IMG/VR virus record: IMGVR_UViG_3300025018_000101
Location: 1 to 64,000 of that record
Direction: 5' to 3' (one strand)
Length of the DNA: 64,000 bases
DNA from: a virus
The notes beneath the pieces were generated by a model. That model was not told where the DNA came from and ran no database searches. It saw nothing but the letters and a program-made list of their open reading frames with translations. This document shows positions 10,360 through 64,000 of the stretch, in pieces. The stretch's first letter is position 1. Every line of letters starts with the position of its first letter. Position numbers and translations under genes: made by a program.

Positions 10360-10439
10360 CCCGACGTGACATCTACCCCGCTTCGAGCTATCGTGGCGGG
10401 GTGCCCCCCTCGGGGCCTTCCTTTAACTCAGGGGGCGGG

Positions 10440-17519: not shown

Positions 17520-20048
17520 ATGCCGTCGTACGCCGGCGCCGCCGAGCCCTCCGAGTACCTGGTCTACCTGTGCGGCATACAGGTCCCGTGCCTGAGCGTG
17601 GACGTCACGGTAGGCATCTGGGACCCGCCCCGCTGCCAGTTGCAGTTTGCCCCGGACCCCGTGTTCCGGCGCATCGGGCAGGATGACATCATGCCGGTGC
17701 AGGTCTTCTACCTGGACGTCATCGGCCGGAGCGCCGTCGGTCAGGCGCCCGAGTGGTGCCTCCTATTCGACGGCATCATCTCGGGACAGGCCTACAGTAG
17801 CGCCAGCGGCTCGCGGACCACCAGCCTGTCGGCCGTCGACCTGACGACGACCATGATGATGATGCGCATGTTCTGGCTGACGAACATCAGCAACCTTACC
17901 TACGCCACGACCGAGAACGCCGGCAACGCCGCCTACTCCGTGGCCCCTGAGTACGCCTTCCCGGCGTCCCTGTTCTACCTCGGCCTGAACCCGACCGAGA
18001 AGCTGCCGATCACTCGGCCCTTCGACTTCGTCGAGAACATGTTCCGGGCGATGTGCTCGGTCGAGGAGGCGGGCGTCTTCCTGTCCGACGCGGTCATCGC
18101 GGAGGCGAACGCGGACGGCGATACGCCGCTGTCCTACAAGAGCGTGGTGGCCCTGCATTGGTGGGCGCGCTGGGCCAAACGCACGGCGTTCCTCGAGCGT
18201 TGGGTGCCGATGCCCGGCGTCGAGGACTTCGCCGCGCCACAGGACCGGCCCCCGTTCCCCATTCTGGACGCCCTGCAGAAGGACGAAGCGGTCAAGGCCA
18301 TCAAGGGCCTCAGCAACTCCATGGGTGATGGCGCGTCGATGTGGGACCTGCTGCGCATGATCTTCCAGCGACTCTCCTACGACGTCGCCATGATCCCCTC
18401 TCCAGCGGCCGTGCAGGTAGCCCGGGGGGTCCGGAACATCATCGGCCCTCCCGTCGGCGGCGTTCCCAACGCACTGGTGCAGTACGTCACCAAGCCGAAG
18501 ATGCCTTTCTGCCTGGCCCCGGCGTGCAACGTCGTCTTTCCCGGGATGGTGACCTCGCTGTCCTACTCCGAGGACTTCCTGCAGCAACCAACCCGCCTGA
18601 TGCTGTCCGACGGGACGCTCTTCAACGTCATCGGAGCGACCGAGTCCGAGTCCCTGGCGGCCGTCTACAACGCAGCGCTGGCCACAGCGTGGCCGCCGCG
18701 GGCCCAGGAGATTCTCGACCGCCACCTCGGCCGTGGAGACAACGCCGCCCCCGACCCGCTGACCAACCCTCACAACCTCCTCGTCTTCCCCTCGGAGTTC
18801 TTCCGAGGGCCCGTGCCGGTCGAAGCTGCCATCCCGAGCTGGTTCATGTACATGGCCAACTCCGCCCAGATCGACCTGGCGCCCGAGGTGCAGACTACCG
18901 TCGACGACTACAAGCGAGACATCCAGGCCGAGCTCACGCGGCGGGCTGGCTCGGCGAAGGCGGAGGACAAGAAGGCCCTCGACGAGATCAAGAAGGTCGT
19001 GGACGGCCTGCCCACGTCGGTCGAGGAGGCCGGCGGCACGGTGACCGGCAAGGACATCCTTGAGGCGTGGTCTGGCGTGTCGGACAAGCTGGCGCTGCCC
19101 ACCGGCCCCCTGGCTGGGCATCAGGCGTCCTACGAGTTCGGCGCCATCATCCGTGGCCGAGCGGCCTCCCTGTTCGGCGACGGCACCACCCGCCAGCTCT
19201 ACGCCGCGCAGATGTTCGCGCAGGAGCGCTACAAGCATCGGTCTGGAGGGGCCTCGTGCCTGTTCCACCCCTACCTCGTCCCCGGCTTCCCCGTGGCGGT
19301 GTTCGACCGGCAAGAAGCGGCCCACCACGTCGAGGGCCTCCTCATGAACGTCTCGCACCACCTCTCGGCAGACTCGTGCGGCACGACGCTCAACTTCTCC
19401 TACGGTCGCACCACGGCCGAGCTCTTCCACGCCGCCCGCACGTCGGGGTACCCGCTGTCGACGGGTCCGGCCGAGTACATCCCAAAGATCCGCGACACCT
19501 TCCAGCAGGTCATCCCCGCCGAGGAGCAGTACCGGAAGCTGTTCTACCAGAACCGGAGCGTCGAAGGTCGCCGCGAAGCCTTCGACGCCTTCAACACGCT
19601 CTACTGCCGAGGCCGCTCCGACAGCACGGAGATCCCGTGGCAGCCGGCTACCGTCCCTTCCCTGGCGGACCTGGACAACGAGGACGTCGACTTTGCCTTC
19701 GCGCCCGAGTTCGCGAAGCGGGTCGAGGACCCCGCCGAGGCGCGCCGCATGGCGTCCCGCCCCGTGGTCACGCTGCCGGAGTGGATGGCCCTGATGGGCT
19801 CGTACAGCCCTGCGAAGGAGGAGCGCGCGAAGTACTACGTCCCGCCGGGTAGCCGTCGGGACCACAACACGGTACGGTACTGGTGGAAGATCCTGACGCT
19901 GGTGCCAGGCCCCGGCACCGAGCCCGTGCACACCGAGCAAGGCAACGTGACGCAGGCGGTCCAGGCCGATACGCGCAGGGATTGGCAACGCCGCCTGATT
20001 GAGTACCGCACTCGCTTCTACAGTCGCACGACGGGGAGGCTCGCATGA
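17520..20048 (+). CDS. baseplate hub protein (GpD/gp27/VgrG-like) with insertions
   Basis: N-terminal LVYLCGIQVP..VDVTVG, LLFDGII, TSLSAVD; C-terminal PYLVPGFPV...LMNVSHHLS...TTLNF. Confidence 0.6.
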   Translation: MPSYAGAAEPSEYLVYLCGIQVPCLSVDVTVGIWDPPRCQLQFAPDPVFRRIGQDDIMPVQVFYLDVIGRSAVGQAPEWCLLFDGIISGQAYSSASGSRTTSLSAVDLTTTMMMMRMFWLTNISNLTYATTENAGNAAYSVAPEYAFPASLFYLGLNPTEKLPITRPFDFVENMFRAMCSVEEAGVFLSDAVIAEANADGDTPLSYKSVVALHWWARWAKRTAFLERWVPMPGVEDFAAPQDRPPFPILDALQKDEAVKAIKGLSNSMGDGASMWDLLRMIFQRLSYDVAMIPSPAAVQVARGVRNIIGPPVGGVPNALVQYVTKPKMPFCLAPACNVVFPGMVTSLSYSEDFLQQPTRLMLSDGTLFNVIGATESESLAAVYNAALATAWPPRAQEILDRHLGRGDNAAPDPLTNPHNLLVFPSEFFRGPVPVEAAIPSWFMYMANSAQIDLAPEVQTTVDDYKRDIQAELTRRAGSAKAEDKKALDEIKKVVDGLPTSVEEAGGTVTGKDILEAWSGVSDKLALPTGPLAGHQASYEFGAIIRGRAASLFGDGTTRQLYAAQMFAQERYKHRSGGASCLFHPYLVPGFPVAVFDRQEAAHHVEGLLMNVSHHLSADSCGTTLNFSYGRTTAELFHAARTSGYPLSTGPAEYIPKIRDTFQQVIPAEEQYRKLFYQNRSVEGRREAFDAFNTLYCRGRSDSTEIPWQPATVPSLADLDNEDVDFAFAPEFAKRVEDPAEARRMASRPVVTLPEWMALMGSYSPAKEERAKYYVPPGSRRDHNTVRYWWKILTLVPGPGTEPVHTEQGNVTQAVQADTRRDWQRRLIEYRTRFYSRTTGRLA

Positions 20049-22549
20049 TCGAAGACCTGGTCGCCCCGATTCTGCCGGTGCTCGACAAGCTCGACGCCCC
20101 CGAGGGCCCTCAGTACGAGGTCGAGGGCATCTCCCTGGCCAACCGCCGCGAACTGACCAAGAGCCTGCTCCGCAAGGCCATCGACGCTACCGGGCTGAAG
20201 CAGCCTGCGCAGCCGAAGCAGGCTGTCTTTGCGCCGAAGAACTTCAGCCTGAGTATGCCCCCGGCGAAGCCTCCGACCGGCCCTGGCCCGCTCAAGCCCC
20301 CGCCCATCCCCAAGCCTGGCGTCATGTCCCCCTCGCCCATCGCGCCGTCAGTCACCCCCGGCGCGACGGCGACCACGGTCGGCGTCCCGGCGGGGAGCAC
20401 TACTTCCAGTGGCACGACGAAGATGAGCGCCCCGGGCATCAAGCCGCCCACACCGGTCAAGCCTCCGCCGCCCATCAAGCCGCCCGCGCCCCCGTCACTG
20501 GCGCCCATCCGACCTCCGAAGCCGAAGAAGGCCCCAGCCACGGAGGTCGCTGGCGCCGTGCAGGGCCCGACGTTGACGAAGGGCCCGCAGCTCCGACATC
20601 CCGGCCAGCAGGGCGGCAGGGACCCGGTCGGGGCGATCAACAAGTTCCTCAAGAGCGGGGCGCTGGACGACTTCCGCCCCCGCGTCGAGGTCTTCCTCTT
20701 CAACGACAAGGGGCAGGTTCTGGCGGGTAGCACACCCGGGCGGGACGGGTTCAAGTTCCCCGGTGGCGGGATCGACGGCGACCCGGTCGACCATGCCGCC
20801 CGCAAGGAACTGCGGGAGGAAGCGGGCTACAAGGTGAAGCATCTCCAGTCTGTAGGCCTGCGCCCCGACAAGCGGGAGTGGTCACAAGCCACGCGCGACG
20901 GCGTCCTGAAGGCCACGGGCGGCAAGCGCGACTTCGGCGGCGACGTCACCCACTGGCGTATGGGCGTGCACTCGGGCCGCGACACCAGCGTGCTCGGGTC
21001 GGAGGGTGACGCGCTTGCCCGGGCGCAGTTCCGGGACGTGCCAAAGGTTCTGGAGTCGCTGAGGGAGCAGACGAAGGACCCGGACGCGTTCATCGCGGGG
21101 CGGTCCCAGGTGCGTCACGACGCCCTCGCGGCAGCCCACCAGCGGTACCAGAACAAGTTTGCCATGGGCCCTGGAGCGGCCGCGCTCCTCGCCGCAGGCG
21201 GCGGGGCAGCAGTGGGGGCGGGCGCACTCGGCGCGGGCTATCTCGCAGCCCAGCGTCTCCCCGCGTTCCTGCCTGGGGTCGAGGACAAGGCCGTCGAGTT
21301 CGCCGCCCTCAAGGACGAGATGGACCCGCTTGAGCGCCTCACCGGGTACAGTTCGCGTGGGGCGGAGCTGATGGGCGCACCCCTGATGCGCCGCCATGAC
21401 GGGTCCATGGTCAGCGGCCGCAACTTCGTCCGTGCCGTGCGGAGCAGCGCCCCCGCAGCGGCGGTCGGGCGGGCGAAGGGCGTCCACGCCTGGGATGAGT
21501 CCAAAGCGGAGCACTACAACCAGTTCCGTCGCGGGCCCGCCAATGCCCTGCTCGTCCTGGCCAAGGAGGAGTTCGGCAAGGGGGAGAACTACGACTACCT
21601 CGCCCAGGCGCTGCAGGGCACTCGCAACGGCGACGTGCAGGCGCAGGCCGCCGCCGTGGAGGCGCTACGTCACTCAGAGGACCCGGAGGTGAAGCGCATC
21701 GCTGCGGAGCTCATGCCGCGCCTCGAGCGCAACCTGACGTCGTGGGGTACAGGCATCCAGGTCGGCCGCACGTACGAGAAGGCCAGGAAGTTTGTCCAGG
21801 GCGAGAAGGAGGCGGCCCCTCGGGGCATGGACCTGACGCACTCCTACCAGACCGCCAAGGACCGGGACAAGGCCTTGTGGGACGCCTACAAGGCCGACCC
21901 GTCGCCCATGAACCTCAAGGCGGTCATGGACAGCCTGTCGCCAGCTATCGAGAGCGAGATCGCGCGCTGGAGCGGACAAGTGCCCGTGACGGTCATGCGT
22001 CTCGAGGCCCGCAAGCTGGCCGTGGAGGCCATCAAGAGCTACGACCCGAACATGGGGACGGCGCTGTCGACGCACGTCCTGAACAAGCTCAAGCGCTTGA
22101 GCCGCACGGTCTACTCGCATCAGGATCTCGTCCGGATGCCGGAGAACCGCAAGCTCGAGAACAACGCCCTGCACAAGGGCCGCGTGCAGCTCCTCGACGA
22201 GCTCGGCCGCGACCCGACCACTGCGGAGCTCAGCGACCACCTCGGCTGGTCCGGCGCGAAGGTCACGAAGGTCCAGGCGTTCCAGGTCTCCGAGTACGTC
22301 GAGAGCCAGGACGTCGGCGGCGATATGTTCGGCAACGTCGCCGGCGGCGCCACCAGTGACCCGCGCGTCGCCTTCGTGTACAACGACCTGAGCCCCGTGC
22401 ATCAGACCATCTTCGAGCACACGACCGGCTACGGCGGCAAGTCCATCCTGACGGCACGCGACATCGCAGCCAAGACCGGCCTCAAAGAGCACCAGGTGGC
22501 TTACCAGCGCCGAAAGATCACGGACAAGTTCCAGGATGTACTGAGGTAG
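20045..22549 (+). CDS. polyprotein: Pro/Lys-rich linker, Nudix hydrolase, glycine zipper, sigma-70-like factor
   Basis: Nudix box FPGGGIDGDPVDHAARKELREEAGY; sigma region 2 AIKSYDPNMGTALSTHV, region 3 LGRDPTTAELSDHLG, region 4 HTH TARDIAAKTGL. Confidence 0.8.
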   Translation: MIEDLVAPILPVLDKLDAPEGPQYEVEGISLANRRELTKSLLRKAIDATGLKQPAQPKQAVFAPKNFSLSMPPAKPPTGPGPLKPPPIPKPGVMSPSPIAPSVTPGATATTVGVPAGSTTSSGTTKMSAPGIKPPTPVKPPPPIKPPAPPSLAPIRPPKPKKAPATEVAGAVQGPTLTKGPQLRHPGQQGGRDPVGAINKFLKSGALDDFRPRVEVFLFNDKGQVLAGSTPGRDGFKFPGGGIDGDPVDHAARKELREEAGYKVKHLQSVGLRPDKREWSQATRDGVLKATGGKRDFGGDVTHWRMGVHSGRDTSVLGSEGDALARAQFRDVPKVLESLREQTKDPDAFIAGRSQVRHDALAAAHQRYQNKFAMGPGAAALLAAGGGAAVGAGALGAGYLAAQRLPAFLPGVEDKAVEFAALKDEMDPLERLTGYSSRGAELMGAPLMRRHDGSMVSGRNFVRAVRSSAPAAAVGRAKGVHAWDESKAEHYNQFRRGPANALLVLAKEEFGKGENYDYLAQALQGTRNGDVQAQAAAVEALRHSEDPEVKRIAAELMPRLERNLTSWGTGIQVGRTYEKARKFVQGEKEAAPRGMDLTHSYQTAKDRDKALWDAYKADPSPMNLKAVMDSLSPAIESEIARWSGQVPVTVMRLEARKLAVEAIKSYDPNMGTALSTHVLNKLKRLSRTVYSHQDLVRMPENRKLENNALHKGRVQLLDELGRDPTTAELSDHLGWSGAKVTKVQAFQVSEYVESQDVGGDMFGNVAGGATSDPRVAFVYNDLSPVHQTIFEHTTGYGGKSILTARDIAAKTGLKEHQVAYQRRKITDKFQDVLR

Positions 22550-22575: not shown

Positions 22576-23655
22576 GTGGACATCTGGATGCTCAACGCCG
22601 GCGCCCCCGACCGGCCGGCCGCCATGGCCGCCACCCTGCTCAAGCTGGGCGTCACCGACTTCGCCTTCATGGTGAACAGGGCGCTCCCGCGAGGGACGTC
22701 CGTCGCGCTCCGCAGGAACCCTGGCTCCGCGGCGGCGAAGTTCAAATTCGACCAGACCTCCCAGGAGCGCAGCGACGCGTGTATCGAGGGCATGAAGGCC
22801 GCAGGCATCCGGACTCACCTCATCGTCTGGATGTCGGGCATCCCCGCCTTCATCAAGTCGCTGGTCGCGGACTTCTTGCCCTACGCGGCCGCTTCTGGGG
22901 CTACGTCGATCATCTGCGACGCCGAGGTGGACTGGCAGCGCGCGTCCGGCGTTGACGCGCTCGTCGAGGACCTCCTCATCCCAGGCCTGGAGCCTTTCCC
23001 AAAGCCCGTGCACTGGGACTCCTACCCTACCCCCCACAAGACCGACCTGCGCATCGCAGCCTACTGCATCAAGGAGCGCGGGGCGCTGAACGGGTTCGCG
23101 TTGCCGCAGTGCTACACGCACCTGCGCCAGGAGAATGGCACGGTCACGGAGCCCACGCGCCGCTACGCCACGCCGGACAAGTACCCTGCCAGAGGCATTC
23201 GGCAGTGGCGCCGCATCGTCGGCGACCGCGTGATCCCTATTGTAAGCGTCTTTGGTGACCCGTACCCGGGCTGGACCGCGTCGAACGCTCTGGCGGCCGG
23301 GCTGAATCAGGCGGCGAAGGCGGCCACACCCGCCGTGGGGATCTGGAGCGCCAGGGCGATCCTGAACATGGGCACGGGCCAACTACTGAACGACACGGAC
23401 ACCCGGGACGTGGCCAAGGTGCTCGGCCGCTTTCAGGCCAGCGGCGGGTACGTCGACTACAAGCACGTGGTCTACCGAGCCAGAGAGCGCGGGGACCTGT
23501 CGCGCAACCGCCAGCAGGAGGCGGAGGACGAGGCGAAGGACGCCGAGCGCAGAGCGCGCCTCCTGGCCCTCGGCGGCGCACGGTCCGACCACAACTTCGA
23601 GTCCTCGGTAGTTCCGGGGCTCCGGTACGACTTCGCGGCGGGGAGGTGGGTCTGA
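22576..23655 (+). CDS. putative glycoside-hydrolase-like (virion lysin-like) protein
   Basis: IICDAEVDW and ALPQCY motifs parallel those of 14992..16080; located in the baseplate module. Confidence 0.5.
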   Translation: MDIWMLNAGAPDRPAAMAATLLKLGVTDFAFMVNRALPRGTSVALRRNPGSAAAKFKFDQTSQERSDACIEGMKAAGIRTHLIVWMSGIPAFIKSLVADFLPYAAASGATSIICDAEVDWQRASGVDALVEDLLIPGLEPFPKPVHWDSYPTPHKTDLRIAAYCIKERGALNGFALPQCYTHLRQENGTVTEPTRRYATPDKYPARGIRQWRRIVGDRVIPIVSVFGDPYPGWTASNALAAGLNQAAKAATPAVGIWSARAILNMGTGQLLNDTDTRDVAKVLGRFQASGGYVDYKHVVYRARERGDLSRNRQQEAEDEAKDAERRARLLALGGARSDHNFESSVVPGLRYDFAAGRWV

Positions 23656-24068
23656 TGGCTGCTGACCTTTACATCGATTTCCTCGGCGAGGCGCCATGGT
23701 CCACGGGAGACGAGCCTCTTGAGGTCGAAGGCAGGGTGAAGCTGGCGGTGCAGTTCCTCCAGTTGCTGTTCACGGCGGAGGGCTCGGACCCGACGGACCT
23801 GGACAGGGGGACGGGACTGGCGTCGCTGGTGGGCGGCAACGTAGGCGACCTGACGGACGCGTCGGATGTACTGGCGCTGGCGATGGATCAGGCGGTAGAA
23901 TGGCTGCGCGGAGTTCAGACGGGCCAGGGGCTCCCTGATGACGAGCGCCTTCGGAACGCCTGGGCGACCCGTATCGAGCCCAACGCGAACGGCGACGGCA
24001 TCTCGGCGACGATCGTGATCGAGAACGAGCTCGGGGACCTCGTCCCTGTGCGCATCCCGCTCAGGTAG
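23655..24068 (+). CDS. baseplate wedge gp25/GPW-like protein
   Basis: LLFTAEGSDPTDLDRGTGL...DERL pattern, size, and position directly before baseplate J. Confidence 0.7.
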   Translation: MAADLYIDFLGEAPWSTGDEPLEVEGRVKLAVQFLQLLFTAEGSDPTDLDRGTGLASLVGGNVGDLTDASDVLALAMDQAVEWLRGVQTGQGLPDDERLRNAWATRIEPNANGDGISATIVIENELGDLVPVRIPLR

Positions 24069-24070
24069 CC

Positions 24071-26590
24071 ATGGCACAGGTCACGCTGACCCAGAAGGAC
24101 ATCGATGACGCCCGCCAGTTCATGGTGGACTTCCTCGGCTCCACGGGCGACTTCGACCCGAACCTGTTCGCCCCTGGGACGGTACACCACGACCGCACCA
24201 TCCGAGCGCTGGCGTTCATCTTCGCCTACATCCAGAGCGAGGTCGAGCGCGTCGAGGTCCTCACCGATTTGTCACGCATCCTCGAGATCGAGGACGAGAC
24301 GGCGCGCAACCAGGCGGTCGACGCCTTCGCCACGAACCTCTTCTCCTCCAGGGCTGCGGGCCGAAAGAGTCGAGGCACCGCGTTGCTCCACTTCTCGGCC
24401 CCTACCACGGGCGTGATCCCGTCGACGACGCGCGTCACGGGCAGGAACGGCAAGACCTACGTCATCGACGACAGCGACGGCATCTTCTTCACCGAGGCCG
24501 ACCTGACGCGCTACGTCGAGGGCAGCGCAGCCGCCTCCACGACCACCTGGGTCCTGCCTGTCCCGATCGTCGCCTCGGACGTGGGCCCCGCCTGGGACCT
24601 CGACCCGGGGCGCTTGTCCTCAGTGAGCGGCAACCTGCCCCTGCTCTCCTACGCCGAGGCCTCCGACGCCATCCGCGGCGGCGTGGACGCTGAGGACGCC
24701 GCGGCCTTCGTCGAGCGCATCCCCGACCTGCTGACCGTCCGGATGCTGGTCACGCCGCGCTCCATCGTCACCGTGCTCACGGAGACCTTCGGCGAGCTCG
24801 GTCGCGTTCGGGCCATCGGAGCCGGCGACGTGGAGATGGTGCGTGACCTGACCCCGTCGTGGCTCGGCGCCACGGGTGTGCACGTCGGCGGCAAGGCGGA
24901 CATCTACGCCCACACGAGTCGAATCGTCCGCCGGTTCCGGGCGTTGTGCGGCGACCCCTACACGGACACCTCTCCGGGCCTTCGGCTCTTCACCGACTGG
25001 GACCTCGTGGATCGGGGTGTCGACCTGCGCGCGCTGGTCGCGCCCGGGGCCGTCCTGCGCTTCTACGACGCGTTCGCCGACGAGTCCCATCTCTACCTCG
25101 TCAGGCACGTCGACGCCGACCACATCCGGATCTCCGAGGCGGCGCCGTTCACGCGCCTGCGCCCCCTGCCGGTCCACACCGACCCGGTCCTGGCGGACGT
25201 GCGCACAGGCAGCGTCAGGTACACGTCCGTGGCCTTCGACGGTGTTGACACGCTCGTCCTGCCGACGGGCGCCTCGCGCTTTGTCGAGGCTGACGCGCCC
25301 AACCACTACGTCTACGTCGTGGACGGGAGCACGTCGGCGATGTACCGGGTCCTGGCGGTCGGCTCTACCGGCCTGGACGGCTACGGCACCCGGGTGACGG
25401 TAGACATTGACGCAGCGGCGGCCGCACTCCTGTCGACTTCAGGCTTGCTGGTCGAGGCGTTCAGCGACCGGCTTCGGTACTCGGCCGGCACCAATGGGCC
25501 GTCGTACGACGACATGATCCCGGTGCGGCCCTTCGGACGGGTCACGCGCGTCGGTGGCACTCGCGGCGCGGTGGCGCTGCCCGCGACGCCAATCTGGCGC
25601 ATCCGCGAGGTCGCGCTCGACGACCCCGACAGTCCGCTGCTCGACCCCTTCACGGGCAAGGTGCTCCTGACCGAGCGCCTGAACGCCCTGCCGGCCGGGG
25701 CGTCTGAGGCGTACGTCGCCGAGACCATGGACCCGGTCTGGGCTCAGAGCCGCTACACGCACACCCTGCTGAAGGTGGGATACGACGACTCCAGGGGGGG
25801 TAGCGCGGCGACGCTCTCCGTCGACGGCCTGGACCCTGACGTGGCGTACCTCGGCGACGGTACGGTGGACTTCGTGGACGCCGATATCGGCAAGACGCTG
25901 CTGGTCGTGGGGCCCGAGAACCTCGGCAACGCGGTGCGGTTCATCATCGAGGAGGTCACGACGAGCCACGCCGTCACGTTGCGGCGCGACTCGGCGGCGA
26001 TCGACGCCCTCCCGTTGGTGTTCGAGCGCAACGTCGTCTGGCGCTTTGACGCCACGGCCGAGGTGCACGGCAAGGCGCTGCAGGTCGTCTACGAGACGAC
26101 GAACAACTACGCCGCGCTCCAGGACATGTTTGAGGACGACGACAACCGCGTCCTGTGCGCCAACATGCTCGTCCGGGGCTTCTTCCCTGTCTACGTCGAG
26201 CTCGACATCCGGTACCAGCTCAAGCCCGGGGCGGTCCCGCTGGACACCACGGCTGCGATCCGGACCCTCGTCGACTTCGTCAACACGTTCCCGACGACCG
26301 ACGTGCTGAACGTCGACGACGTGACGACGGCGCTTCGCGCGGCCTTCCCTGCTACGGTGGGCAACGTGCTGCGGTCGGGGCCCGCGCTGACTGCGCGCTA
26401 CACGCTGGCGTCGCCCACGGGGGAGCTTGTGCGGTTCGTCTCTACGGACGTCATCTCGGTGCGCAGCGACCTCGTCGCATCGGATGAGGACCTCGTTCTG
26501 TTCAACACCGCCCGCTCCTTCGGCGTCAGTGACCGGACGGTGTACGTCCTGACTGCGCCGGACCTGCTGACGCTGACGAGGGTCCCATGA
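24071..26590 (+). CDS. baseplate J-like protein
   Basis: SRAAGRKSRGTALLHF, VPIVASDVG..WDL, IRGGVDAEDAAAFVERI and GGKADIY motifs. Confidence 0.8.
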   Translation: MAQVTLTQKDIDDARQFMVDFLGSTGDFDPNLFAPGTVHHDRTIRALAFIFAYIQSEVERVEVLTDLSRILEIEDETARNQAVDAFATNLFSSRAAGRKSRGTALLHFSAPTTGVIPSTTRVTGRNGKTYVIDDSDGIFFTEADLTRYVEGSAAASTTTWVLPVPIVASDVGPAWDLDPGRLSSVSGNLPLLSYAEASDAIRGGVDAEDAAAFVERIPDLLTVRMLVTPRSIVTVLTETFGELGRVRAIGAGDVEMVRDLTPSWLGATGVHVGGKADIYAHTSRIVRRFRALCGDPYTDTSPGLRLFTDWDLVDRGVDLRALVAPGAVLRFYDAFADESHLYLVRHVDADHIRISEAAPFTRLRPLPVHTDPVLADVRTGSVRYTSVAFDGVDTLVLPTGASRFVEADAPNHYVYVVDGSTSAMYRVLAVGSTGLDGYGTRVTVDIDAAAAALLSTSGLLVEAFSDRLRYSAGTNGPSYDDMIPVRPFGRVTRVGGTRGAVALPATPIWRIREVALDDPDSPLLDPFTGKVLLTERLNALPAGASEAYVAETMDPVWAQSRYTHTLLKVGYDDSRGGSAATLSVDGLDPDVAYLGDGTVDFVDADIGKTLLVVGPENLGNAVRFIIEEVTTSHAVTLRRDSAAIDALPLVFERNVVWRFDATAEVHGKALQVVYETTNNYAALQDMFEDDDNRVLCANMLVRGFFPVYVELDIRYQLKPGAVPLDTTAAIRTLVDFVNTFPTTDVLNVDDVTTALRAAFPATVGNVLRSGPALTARYTLASPTGELVRFVSTDVISVRSDLVASDEDLVLFNTARSFGVSDRTVYVLTAPDLLTLTRVP

Positions 26591-62437: not shown

Positions 62438-64000
62438 ATGGGCGACTGGGGATTCACGAAGCTGGCCGAAGAGGTGCGACGGCTTGTCCAGGAGACGCAG
62501 GCCGAGACTCCCGAGGGGGAGGGGCCGGCGTTCCACGGTAAGATCAGCGACATCAAGGGGCTGCGCTCCGTGCTGGCCCCGGCGTCCGAGCGACGCGATG
62601 CCATCCGCAAGCAGGCCGTGGCCTCGATGTACAACGTCTTCCCGATCAAGGGGACGAACTACGACGTCACCGTGCACGACGTCAGGGTCGACGCGGCCGA
62701 CTACACCCTCGAGGACATGAAGGAGGCGGTGCTGGCCCGCAAGTCGCTGACCGAGCCCATCAAGGCCACGGTCCGCATCACCGACAAGGCCTCCGGCAGG
62801 GTACTGGACGAGCAGAAGAAGACGCTCGGCCACCTGCCGTTCATGACGGACCACCACACCTTCATCCTCGACGGGAACCCGTACGCCCTCTCGAGTCAGT
62901 TGCGAGTCAAGCCGGGGGTGTACACCCGGATGCGCAGCAACGGGGACCTCGAGAGCGCGTTCAACCTGGGGCGCGGGGCGAACTTCCGCCTGTTCATGGA
63001 CCCGATGCGCGGCGTCTTCCACATCCAGTACGGGGCGACCAAGACGCCCCTGTACCCGATCCTGGTCGCACTCGGCGTGCAGGAGTCGGTCATCGCGCAG
63101 GCGTGGGGCAAGGACCTGGCGGACGCCAACCGCGCGGCATCCCGCGGCAAGGAGCGCCTCGCCCTGGCGACGCTCTACGCCAAGGTCGTCCCGATGTCGA
63201 AGCGCTCGAAGGCCCCCAGCGAGGCTGACATGGTGGCGGCCATCCGGGAGGCGTATGGCAACACCGTGCTCGACCCGGCGGTGACCAAGGCCACGCTGTC
63301 CATGGCGGTCTCCTCGGTGACGCCCCTGGCCCTGCTGGCCGCCAGCAAGAAGATCCTCGGCGTCTACAACGAGACCGAGCAGGAGGACGACCGCGACGAC
63401 CTCCAGTTCAAGACGCTGCACACCCCGGACACCTTCGTCAAGGAGCGCATCGAGAAGGATGCCGCTCGGGGTGTCCTGCTGCGGAGCCGCTTCAAGCTCA
63501 ACCGCACCGCCGACCCGAAGGTGAAGGACGTCCTGCCTTCGGCGCCGTTCTCCGGAGCGCTTCGGAGCCTCATCACCCAGAGCTCCCTGGCGCAGGCCCC
63601 CAGCCAGATCAACCCTGTCGAGCTCATCGATGGCGCGGTCAAGGTCACCAGCCTCGGCGAGGGCGGCATCTCCTCGCTGCGCTCGGTCCCCGAGTCCACG
63701 AGGTCGCAGCACGCCAGTCACCTCGGCATGCTCGATCCGGTGCGCACTGCAGAGTGCTACGACGACCAGACGGAGGTCTACACGCGCGCGGGGTGGGTGC
63801 GCTGGCCTGACGTCGATGAGAACGCGGAGTTCGCCTGCCTCATCGACGGCCGCCTGGCGTTCCATCCGCCCCTGCGCCTGATCTCCGCGCCCTACGACGG
63901 TGAACTGCTGTGCGTGACGACGAGTCGGCGCGTCGGGTACGCGGTTACGCCCAACCACCGCCTCCACGTTCGGCCCACGGACCTGCGCGGCAATGCGTCG
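62438..64000 (+). CDS. rpoB: phage multisubunit RNA polymerase beta subunit, 5' part, intein-containing (runs off the window)
   Basis: Segments translated by hand in one frame: GHLPFMTDHHTFILDG...SQLRVKPGVY and SLAQAPSQINPVELI...VTSLGEGG...HASHLGMLDPVRTAE. Absent from the ORF track because there is no stop in the window. Confidence 0.88.
   Translation, partial: MGDWGFTKLAEEVRRLVQETQAETPEGEGPAFHGKISDIKGLRSVLAPASERRDAIRKQAVASMYNVFPIKGTNYDVTVHDVRVDAADYTLEDMKEAVLARKSLTEPIKATVRITDKASGRVLDEQKKTLGHLPFMTDHHTFILDGNPYALSSQLRVKPGVYTRMRSNGDLESAFNLGRGANFRLFMDPMRGVFHIQYGATKTPLYPILVALGVQESVIAQAWGKDLADANRAASRGKERLALATLYAKVVPMSKRSKAPSEADMVAAIREAYGNTVLDPAVTKATLSMAVSSVTPLALLAASKKILGVYNETEQEDDRDDLQFKTLHTPDTFVKERIEKDAARGVLLRSRFKLNRTADPKVKDVLPSAPFSGALRSLITQSSLAQAPSQINPVELIDGAVKVTSLGEGGISSLRSVPESTRSQHASHLGMLDPVRTAECYDDQTEVYTRAGWVRWPDVDENAEFACLIDGRLAFHPPLRLISAPYDGELLCVTTSRRVGYAVTPNHRLHVRPTDLRGNAS
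63755..64000 (+). mobile_element. intein, N-terminal splicing region
   Basis: Block A CYDDQTEVYTRAGW and block B VTPNH, inserted right after the RTAE (E. coli ETPE-equivalent) motif. Confidence 0.85.

Follow-up and report, generated by a model that had tools for sequence, protein, structure and literature searches.

A sigma-70-family domain at the end of a candidate pro-sigma polyprotein in the baseplate operon of a phage encoding its own RNA polymerase

The 834-residue open reading frame (ORF) at positions 20045–22549 of the IMG/VR virus record IMGVR_UViG_3300025018_000101 ends in what sequence profiles and structure models identify as a true sigma-70-family domain (residues ~600–834), for which a promoter-specific function is predicted. 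In the same frame this domain is preceded by a Nudix hydrolase domain and a glycine/alanine zipper, and the tripeptide K-x-A recurs at the junctions between the pieces. The window analyzed comprises the first 64 kb of the 155,236-bp record (~69% G+C, estimated 88% complete), and the gene lies among baseplate genes of a phage that also encodes an RNA polymerase (RNAP). With modest confidence, we read the ORF as a pro-sigma polyprotein that would be made late in infection, packaged, cut and injected into the next host. A broader proposal is more tentative: a large and so far undescribed family of RNAP-encoding myophages may package a sigma-70 factor, one clade as a K-x-[AS]-cleaved pro-sigma with swappable cargo, so delivering a holoenzyme together with takeover enzymes. 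The parts of the ORF, all on the plus strand, are as follows.

20045–22549 (including the stop codon), plus strand: whole 834-residue ORF, candidate pro-sigma polyprotein precursor, defined by a continuous frame, the G+C content at third codon positions (GC3) and an ATGA-coupled start
20045–20224, plus strand: N-terminal module, residues 1–60, shared with the fused homologs P0002–P0005, P0007, P0010–P0012 and L017
20225–20533, plus strand: Pro/Lys-rich linker, residues 61–163, disordered, bounded by K58-Q-A and K161-K-A
20657–21148, plus strand: Nudix hydrolase domain, residues ~205–368 (Pfam NUDIX, ESM Atlas structure match)
21155–21163, plus strand: K371-F-A, candidate processing site within the leader-like motif RYQNKFAMG
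21164–21250, plus strand: weakly hydrophobic Gly/Ala zipper, residues 374–402 (Kyte-Doolittle maximum 1.55)
21251–21805, plus strand: helical domain with no assigned function, residues 403–587, partially homologous to a protein of the relative G002/L010
21806–21814, plus strand: K588-E-A, candidate site that would release sigma, K-x-[AS] being conserved in fused homologs
21827–21829, plus strand: in-frame ATG (M595), possible but unconserved internal start, 14 nt after AAGGAGG
21842–22546, plus strand: sigma-70-family domain, residues 600–834 (Pfam, family profile, AlphaFold2, Foldseek)

A first-pass annotation of the sequence had recognized regions 2–4 of a sigma-70-like domain after an EKEAA motif, and this assignment is borne out by Pfam, by a family profile and by structure prediction. 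Scored alone, the domain matches Sigma70_r3 (PF04539) at 27.7–27.8 bits against a cut-off of 25.3; within the full-length protein the same model reaches only 24.8 bits (cut-off 25.3), and PHROGs agrees weakly. Searching residues 595–834 against 1.84 billion representative proteins with phmmer returned 1543 matches at E ≤ 1e-3, and a family profile was built from 61 of these. The profile is collinear over regions 2–4 with the solved chains of RpoS, SigA, SigB, RpoD, SigF and FliA (best match RpoS, 7vf9_F, E 2.5e-19, profile positions 15–235), and 59 of the 61 family members match Sigma70_r3, some also r4 or r2. AlphaFold2 (AF2) models residues 600–834 with a predicted local distance difference test (pLDDT) score of ~90, and all 49 matches listed by Foldseek from the PDB (ranks 1–50) are sigma-factor chains, with probability 1.00. 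The subregions comprise sigma2 (~604–693), sigma3 (~698–757; Pfam r3 707–745) and sigma4 (~773–833). Neither Sigma70_r3 nor Sigma70_r4 nor the family profile picked up a second sigma gene in the record.

As first described, linker, Nudix domain, glycine zipper and sigma domain form one uninterrupted 834-residue ORF. Its ATG overlaps the TGA stop of the upstream 842-residue gene (ATGA), and its start is preceded by a Shine-Dalgarno sequence, GGGGAGG. GC3 is 0.80–0.98 in this frame in every 150-nt window and, being unbroken, gives no sign of a frameshift or chimeric join. A 2142-bp contig encodes the protein P0001, which matches the 834-residue protein with 100% identity over 663 residues (172–834). 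Comparable sigma fusions are present in independent metagenomes, including Nudix–sigma fusions in L009 and L011, and the closest clade is always extended N-terminally with varied cargo; the fusion is therefore natural and not an assembly artefact. That two or more genes were joined by a missed stop codon or frameshift, a concern with any record that is an uncultured metagenomic contig, is hardly credible given this GC3 continuity, the identity of P0001 and the independent fusions.

Sequence searches with the other parts were less productive. Word-based homolog searches (whole protein; residues 195–600; the Nudix part against shorter proteins) recovered only P0001 or nothing, because candidates were dominated by matches to the Pro/Lys linker and because the Nudix and zipper parts have diverged strongly. 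Searches for related loci with the sigma domain alone in viral contigs, or with residues 195–594 in metagenome contigs, returned nothing, and none of the five pieces has a paralog that could be found elsewhere in the same genome. The AF2 model of the whole protein is confident for residues 600–834 only, the N-terminal 600 residues being poorly modeled for want of a deep enough alignment. An interpretation of the N-terminal half as a tape measure was ruled out, since this half is proline-rich and disordered instead of long and helical, and contains an enzyme fold.

Most relatives of the sigma domain are free-standing proteins of 225–260 residues that start 10–16 residues before a conserved Trp (W612 here). 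Among them is gp10 of the cultured Salmonella phage Arash (OQ632216.1), a homolog of residues 606–830 (32% identity, E 1e-26), and further homologs of this segment occur in Vibrio phages D69, D181 and D148. Arash gp10 differs from the present ORF in being a free-standing protein of 234 residues with no N-terminal module, linker, Nudix domain, zipper or K-x-A leader. The 14 closest representatives (P0002–P0015, 39–54% identity) are all extended N-terminally, by ~90–460 residues, and in-frame sigma fusion is seen in no fewer than 29 representatives or loci, whose N-terminal parts are quite unlike one another. Whether homologous sigma genes carry different N-terminal cargo, a question raised in the first-pass annotation, can thus be answered with yes. 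In L009 and L011, from two other metagenomes, a Nudix domain is fused directly to sigma (363 and 358 residues; NUDIX 52 bits in L009). P0010 carries an FR47/GNAT acetyltransferase, and P0146, a metagenomic representative of 682 residues, a LigD 3′-phosphoesterase (45.6 bits) and an ATP-dependent DNA ligase domain (29 bits). Other fused homologs have extensions with unrecognized domains. P0146 joins an enzyme of nucleic-acid end repair to a phage sigma.

K-x-A occurs five times in the 834-residue protein. K58QA, K161KA, K371FA and K588EA each stand at a junction between pieces; the fifth, K657LA, lies inside a confidently modeled helix of the sigma domain. The earlier proposal that these sites fall at domain borders therefore stands for four of the five. 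The predicted NKFA (residues 370–373, K371 at nt 21155) is indeed directly N-terminal of the Gly/Ala-rich segment at residues 374–402, and EKEAA (residues 587–591, K588 at nt 21806) precedes the start of the conserved sigma domain by 10–13 residues. The ORF overall is not enriched in the motif (5 of 57 lysines, p = 0.86), and what stands out is the placement of K-x-A and its conservation in homologs.

This conservation was assessed in 29 fused homologs anchored on the conserved Trp, the segment 12–26 residues upstream being compared with shuffled versions of each extension (2000 trials). K-x-A is found in this segment in 17 of the 29 (shuffle 3.5 ± 1.7, maximum 10) and K-x-[AS] in 22 (shuffle 5.4 ± 2.0), figures that overstate independence in that the homologs are mutually related. 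Control segments 27–41, 42–56 and 57–71 residues upstream contain K-x-A in 7, 0 and 5 of 29. The local pattern before sigma is K-x-[AS]-[AS], embedded in linkers that are otherwise unalignable. As free-standing sigmas mostly start 10–16 residues before the Trp, the mature sigma predicted from cleavage at this position would be comparable in size.

An origin of free sigma by translation would make proteolysis unnecessary. In such a scheme two products arise, sigma being translated from the ATG at 21827 (M595) and the long form being a by-product of a lost stop codon. AAGGAGG does lie 14 nt upstream of this in-frame ATG, exactly where homology to the free-standing sigmas begins, and GAGAAGGAGG (window 21806–21829) contains this strong Shine-Dalgarno-like string. 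The spacer can form a GCCCC-TC-GGGGC hairpin. The string, however, simply represents the codons for E-K-E-A, although it may conceivably serve both purposes; the 14-nt spacer is long, and a Met at the position of M595 is not conserved among the fused homologs, being absent from most of them while K-x-[AS] is kept. Since in-frame fusion also recurs in the at least 29 representatives or loci with differing N-terminal parts, translation from M595 is an unlikely source of sigma.

The K-x-A motif is prominent in a second set of genes, those of the head module. In the gene at 72294–73460, beyond the window, 9 of 10 lysines are in K-x-A (p = 7e-8); the gene at 76841–77761 has 7 of 14, and other head-module genes have 7 of 18, 4 of 5 and 4 of 5. 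These K-x-A-rich genes adjoin a gene with a head-maturation-protease domain (82002–83975, phrog_18299) and a K-x-A-rich scaffold-like ORF. In the relative G002 (53% GC, L018–L025), all 10 lysines of a 223-residue ORF on the minus strand (136785–137456) are in K-x-A (p = 9e-11), and neighboring ORFs have 11 of 17, 9 of 14 and 9 of 24, near the RNAP gene of that phage. At 53% GC, the enrichment is evidently independent of the scarcity of lysine in high-GC genomes. In Arash (L026, 128000–177000), gp220, gp223 and gp225 are enriched (p 4e-6 to 4e-5), and in a scan of all i/i+2 residue pairs in gp218–225 the pair K.A ranks first, with 44 observed against 19.4 expected. Recognition by a protease would be the simplest reading of the motif, which makes the tripeptides in the 834-residue protein candidate sites.

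The N-terminal module comprises short helices, a strand-like motif (EVEGISL..R) and an LLRKA helix, and ends with K58-Q-A; AF2 places a helix at residues 31–48 (pLDDT ~70). Many of the fused forms share a module of the pattern ..GG-x-D-x-S/R..R....LLRKA followed by a P/K/A-rich linker of the same character as residues 61–163, where the Pro/Lys-rich linker first noted in the ORF was located. The recurrence of this composition suggests that the linker itself may have a role, for example in spacing or DNA binding. The ~100-residue Lys/Pro linker (20225–20533) is similar to the Lys-Pro spacers of TonB-type proteins and to histone-H1-like basic tails. Small ORFs that precede sigma in Arash (gp9) and D69 have no evident similarity to the N-terminal module.

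The Nudix domain, first placed at ~20670–21100, is matched by Pfam PF00293 (NUDIX) at 37.2 bits over residues 210–272 (cut-off 21.1), with weak agreement from PHROGs, and residues 206–368 of the ESM Atlas model align to a Nudix cluster with a template modeling (TM) score of 0.83. The Nudix box spans residues 240–262 (nt 20762–20830) and reads G240-x5-D246-x7-K254-E255-L256-x-E258-E259-x-G261-Y262. Relative to the canonical G-x5-E-x7-R-E-U-x-E-E-x-G-U, Glu is replaced by Asp and Arg by Lys, and the catalytic Glu-Glu pair is retained; the Nudix domains of L009 and L011 have a canonical box. No close relatives of the domain were found in the searches. Its best sequence matches are RppH proteins, with E 2.5e-5 in the PDB (E. 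coli RppH, entries 6d13 and 4s2v, the match covering the N-terminal strands along with the Nudix box) and 1.5e-8 in NCBIfam, where the best model, the RppH equivalog NF001937, scores 34.5 bits, well below its cut-off of 139. RppH-type RNA pyrophosphohydrolases are thus the nearest, weak resemblance in sequence, which does not imply membership, and action of the domain on caps or 5′ ends of RNA is therefore to be taken as a lead and not as a finding.

The RppH likeness would also fit a protein that is not cut. An uncleaved 834-residue sigma with a tethered Nudix enzyme could, for instance, process nascent 5′ ends, the K-x-A motifs being coincidental, and the direct Nudix–sigma fusions of L009 and L011, which have neither linker nor zipper, do suggest a functional link between the two domains. 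Even these two proteins, however, retain K-T-S 13–16 residues before the sigma domain. The cargo is moreover interchangeable among relatives, and an initiation factor would hardly be expected to carry a ~100-residue P/K linker or a hydrophobic zipper. A functional fusion that stays intact is accordingly a decidedly doubtful explanation.

The zipper and the helical domain that follows it have counterparts in separate proteins. Residues 424–517 are homologous to a free-standing 405-residue two-zipper protein of the relative G002/L010 (E 3e-5 and 3.5e-6), and RYQNKFAMG resembles the N-terminal leaders of free-standing Gly-zipper proteins (GYxRTxKxAG in L009 and L010). Further examples of such leaders, from the window, are EAAFKVAG and EALKTAG, at 10401 and 12205. 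Given a zipper unit that is free-standing in G002 and these leader-like motifs, the 834-residue ORF gives the impression of several units, each a gene of its own in relatives, strung together in frame.

The ORF lies in a baseplate operon, as the first-pass annotation had it, with a hub gene upstream and gp25-like and J-like genes downstream. The neighbors that define this context are as follows.

17520–20048, plus strand: VgrG/gpD/gp44-like baseplate hub, 842 residues (ESM Atlas structural neighbors; orthologs precede sigma in all related loci)
23646–24068, plus strand: gp25-like (sheath-initiator-like) gene, 140 residues (synteny; weak Sheath_initiator match in the L012 ortholog, E 0.0097)
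24071–26590, plus strand: Baseplate J-like wedge gene, 839 residues (Pfam Baseplate_J)

The ESM Atlas structural neighbors of the upstream product are VgrG, Phage_GPD and Mu gp44-like proteins, and on the strength of these models it is a baseplate hub. Baseplate_J scores a weak 18.5 bits in the window gene and 28.2 bits in the L011 ortholog (cut-off 21.1). Sequence searches of the PDB with the hub-like, gp25-like and J-like products returned nothing. Gene junctions around sigma are tight or overlapping, and a scan from 15.5 to 27 kb revealed neither a sigma70-type promoter nor a plus-strand terminator. A search for related loci with alignment A1 yielded seven viral loci and, among metagenome contigs, the partial locus L017. 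In L009–L015, Arash and D69 the genes follow one another as hub, variable genes, sigma, variable genes, gp25-like and J-like, the seven IMG/VR loci ranging from 37 to 59% G+C and the conserved order as a whole spanning 37–69%. In the three loci with visible context (window, L012 and L017), the gene with the fused module directly follows the hub. Arash gp10 occupies the same place, downstream of the hub-like "cell wall hydrolase" gp8, with gp9 between them, and before the wedge genes.

Signatures of RNAP β (PF00562) and β′ (PF00623) occur together in one 1922-residue open frame that begins at window position 62438, the C-terminal half of β′ being encoded by a separate gene. RNAP β is encoded in all five related records searched, and so in 6/6 genomes counting the present one. 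Arash likewise combines this kind of β/β′ RNAP with K-x-A-enriched head-module proteins. The fused β–β′ gene starts (window 62438–62470) with MGDWGFTKLAEE, which places a K-x-A at residues 8–10; it may represent a similar leader of minimal length, or have arisen by chance.

In the model that we favor, the ORF would be a late-expressed precursor, encoded by a phage that comes with a bacterial-type RNAP of its own. Four units would be joined in it: a docking module at the N-terminus with its linker, an RppH-like Nudix enzyme, a Gly-zipper/helical protein with a K-x-A leader, and the sole sigma of the phage. Synthesized alongside the proteins of baseplate and hub, the precursor would be taken into the assembling particle and cut by a maturation protease (candidate motif K-x-[AS]) at K58QA, K161KA, K371FA and K588EA, giving five pieces, namely N-terminal module, linker, Nudix enzyme, zipper protein and a sigma of ~244 residues. 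These would be ejected into the next host along with the phage RNAP. There the sigma would pair with the co-delivered RNAP, or conceivably with the host core enzyme, to start early transcription, while nucleotide signals or the 5′ ends of RNA would be the targets of the Nudix enzyme and the Gly-zipper piece would act at the membrane. As to where in the particle the precursor might reside, the motif shared with head proteins suggests the head, and the position of the gene after a VgrG-like hub, the N-terminal module and the basic linker, which recall cargo of type VI secretion systems (T6SS) and extracellular contractile injection systems (eCIS), suggest the tail.

The same conserved K-x-[AS] just before sigma would also fit activation inside the infected cell. 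The ~590 N-terminal residues might be inhibitory or tether the precursor to the membrane, as the Gly/Ala hydrophobic segment could do, and cleavage at K588EA would then activate sigma with nothing injected. Such a pro-sequence, of the type found in Bacillus pro-sigmaE and pro-sigmaK, would couple a late phase of transcription to particle assembly, and the late-type operon of the gene agrees with this. Left unexplained would be the changing enzymes in the extensions (Nudix, GNAT, ligase) and the lack of any pro-sequence in most relatives. A late-gene sigma would, further, be needed before the late operon that encodes it, and the sigma of Arash has been detected in particle preparations. Purely intracellular activation is therefore unlikely, though not negligible.

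Those preparations provide the closest experimental parallel to the proposed packaging. Arash gp10 was detected with 100% coverage and 467 spectra, RNAP β was the most abundant protein, and β′ was also found (PMC10585845). The preparation as a whole listed 116 of 272 proteins, including ribonucleotide reductases (PMC10585845), so that its purity is doubtful and the support soft. Several further observations, like the low overall K-x-A content of the ORF and the mutual relatedness of the homologs, also weigh against the polyprotein model. K-x-[AS] is missing from the segment 12–26 residues upstream of the Trp in 7 of the 29 fused homologs, and the protease motif is itself inferred, as are cleavage and packaging of the 834-residue protein. 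The sigma gene stands among baseplate genes and the K-x-A-rich proteins among head genes. As Arash gp10 lacks a leader, packaging, if real, needs none. The first-pass idea of a packaged and cut polyprotein thus gains from the varied cargo, the K-x-A conserved before sigma and the RNAP of the phage; its cutting, packaging and early role stay conjectural, as does its corollary that sigma is injected with a virion RNAP, of which the phage-encoded RNAP is the established part.

One further point against a sigma active in initiation comes from region 2.3/2.4, where the profile alignment sets the family consensus sTHvtnqLkk opposite STYATWWIRQ of sigma-70. A His stands in place of the Tyr and there is no Trp pair, such that the promoter-melting aromatics Y430/W433/W434 are not kept. 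This loss, the invariant position between hub and wedge genes across very distant relatives, and spectral counts of the Arash sigma similar to those of baseplate proteins could all indicate a structural relic, that is, a sigma-derived baseplate or tail component no longer acting in transcription. Loss of the −10-melting aromatics is, however, a departure typical of diverged alternative sigmas and no ground for exclusion. The whole sigma2–sigma3–sigma4 architecture is retained at the profile level, the protein is the sole sigma of a genome whose RNAP is of the sigma-dependent type, and sigma and that RNAP co-occur in all six genomes. A relic is for these reasons very improbable.

The proposed precursor would combine features of three kinds of system: early machinery delivered by virions, polyvalent proteins or internal proteins that are processed, and pro-sigma factors. 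Early transcription apparatus that is made late and shipped in the particle is known from the N4 virion RNAP, a single-subunit enzyme, from the virion RNAPs of phiKZ and AR9, and from poxviruses, whose RNAP is packaged with early factors and paired with the D9/D10 Nudix decapping enzymes. The likeness here lies in an early apparatus that is proposed to be made late and shipped, and in the pairing with a Nudix enzyme as in poxviruses. Phages known to package an RNAP have either a single-subunit enzyme (N4) or a split multisubunit one without a recognizable sigma (phiKZ, AR9). Absence of a sigma factor has also been reported for the phiKZ-type group 1 jumbo phages (PMC7824862). In the literature searched, no description was found of a packaged sigma-70-family factor, of a Nudix–sigma fusion in phages or of a K-x-A protease code.

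Internal proteins of T4 and inner-body proteins of phiKZ (cut by gp175) carry short leaders, in T4 the capsid-targeting sequences, are cut by prohead proteases and are ejected with the DNA. The tripeptides recognized are L/I-x-E in T4 and S/A/G-x-E in phiKZ. The candidate described here differs in its motif, K-x-[AS], and in its gene, which belongs to a baseplate and not to a head operon. In Bacillus, pro-sigmaE and pro-sigmaK have an N-terminal extension that is removed by a dedicated protease, and pro-sigmaK is membrane-associated. Unlike the present extension, these pro-sequences are ~20–30 residues long and contain no enzymes; SpoIIGA and SpoIVFB, which remove them, are unrelated proteases, and packaging plays no part.

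The closest conceptual parallel in protein architecture is offered by the polyvalent proteins, large multi-domain products encoded among late virion genes in phages and also in conjugative elements (Iyer et al. 2017, PMC5512222). They combine early-acting enzymes such as GNAT acetyltransferases, ADP-ribosyltransferases (ART), nucleotide-targeting enzymes, primases as well as N4's virion RNAP, and the prediction is that they enter together with the DNA and are cleaved into individual units (PMC5512222). The survey that defined them contains no sigma-factor module, the word "sigma" occurring 0 times (PMC5512222). The ORF resembles them in that a Nudix domain, a zipper/helical unit and a sigma are united in one protein encoded between hub and wedge genes. 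It differs in the hallmark zincin-like metallopeptidase (MPTase) and MuF domains: no Pfam, PHROG or NCBIfam match to either, or to a portal fusion, was found in the 834-residue ORF, and processing would thus take place in trans at K-x-[AS].

If the polyprotein model is true, the phage would ship both a core enzyme of bacterial type and a bona fide sigma factor, and a cleavable sigma precursor with swappable enzymes would extend the polyvalent-protein idea to an initiation factor. With the candidate code K-x-[AS], the cargo of virions could then be predicted for hundreds of phages that have not been cultured. It is tempting to speculate on the physical link between Nudix and sigma, found three times independently, which hints at 5′-end or nucleotide-signal chemistry in the first round of transcription. 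Arash, as a cultured relative, makes much of the model testable at the bench, and its published raw mass spectrometry data could be searched again for cleavage at K-x-A.

Some minor features of the surrounding loci complete the description. Between sigma and the gp25-like gene, the window contains a 359-residue ORF without a family match (22576–23655); at this position L009 and L010 encode a 552-residue protein in which lysozyme and M23 peptidase-like motifs are recognizable by eye only. The interval between hub and wedge genes in these two relatives (L009:4838–8217 and L010:6023–12739) holds runs of four to six small genes that have in common an N-terminal GYxRTxKxAG-like leader and Gly-zipper segments but differ in their bodies. 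It looks like a polymorphic cargo hot spot that also houses sigma.

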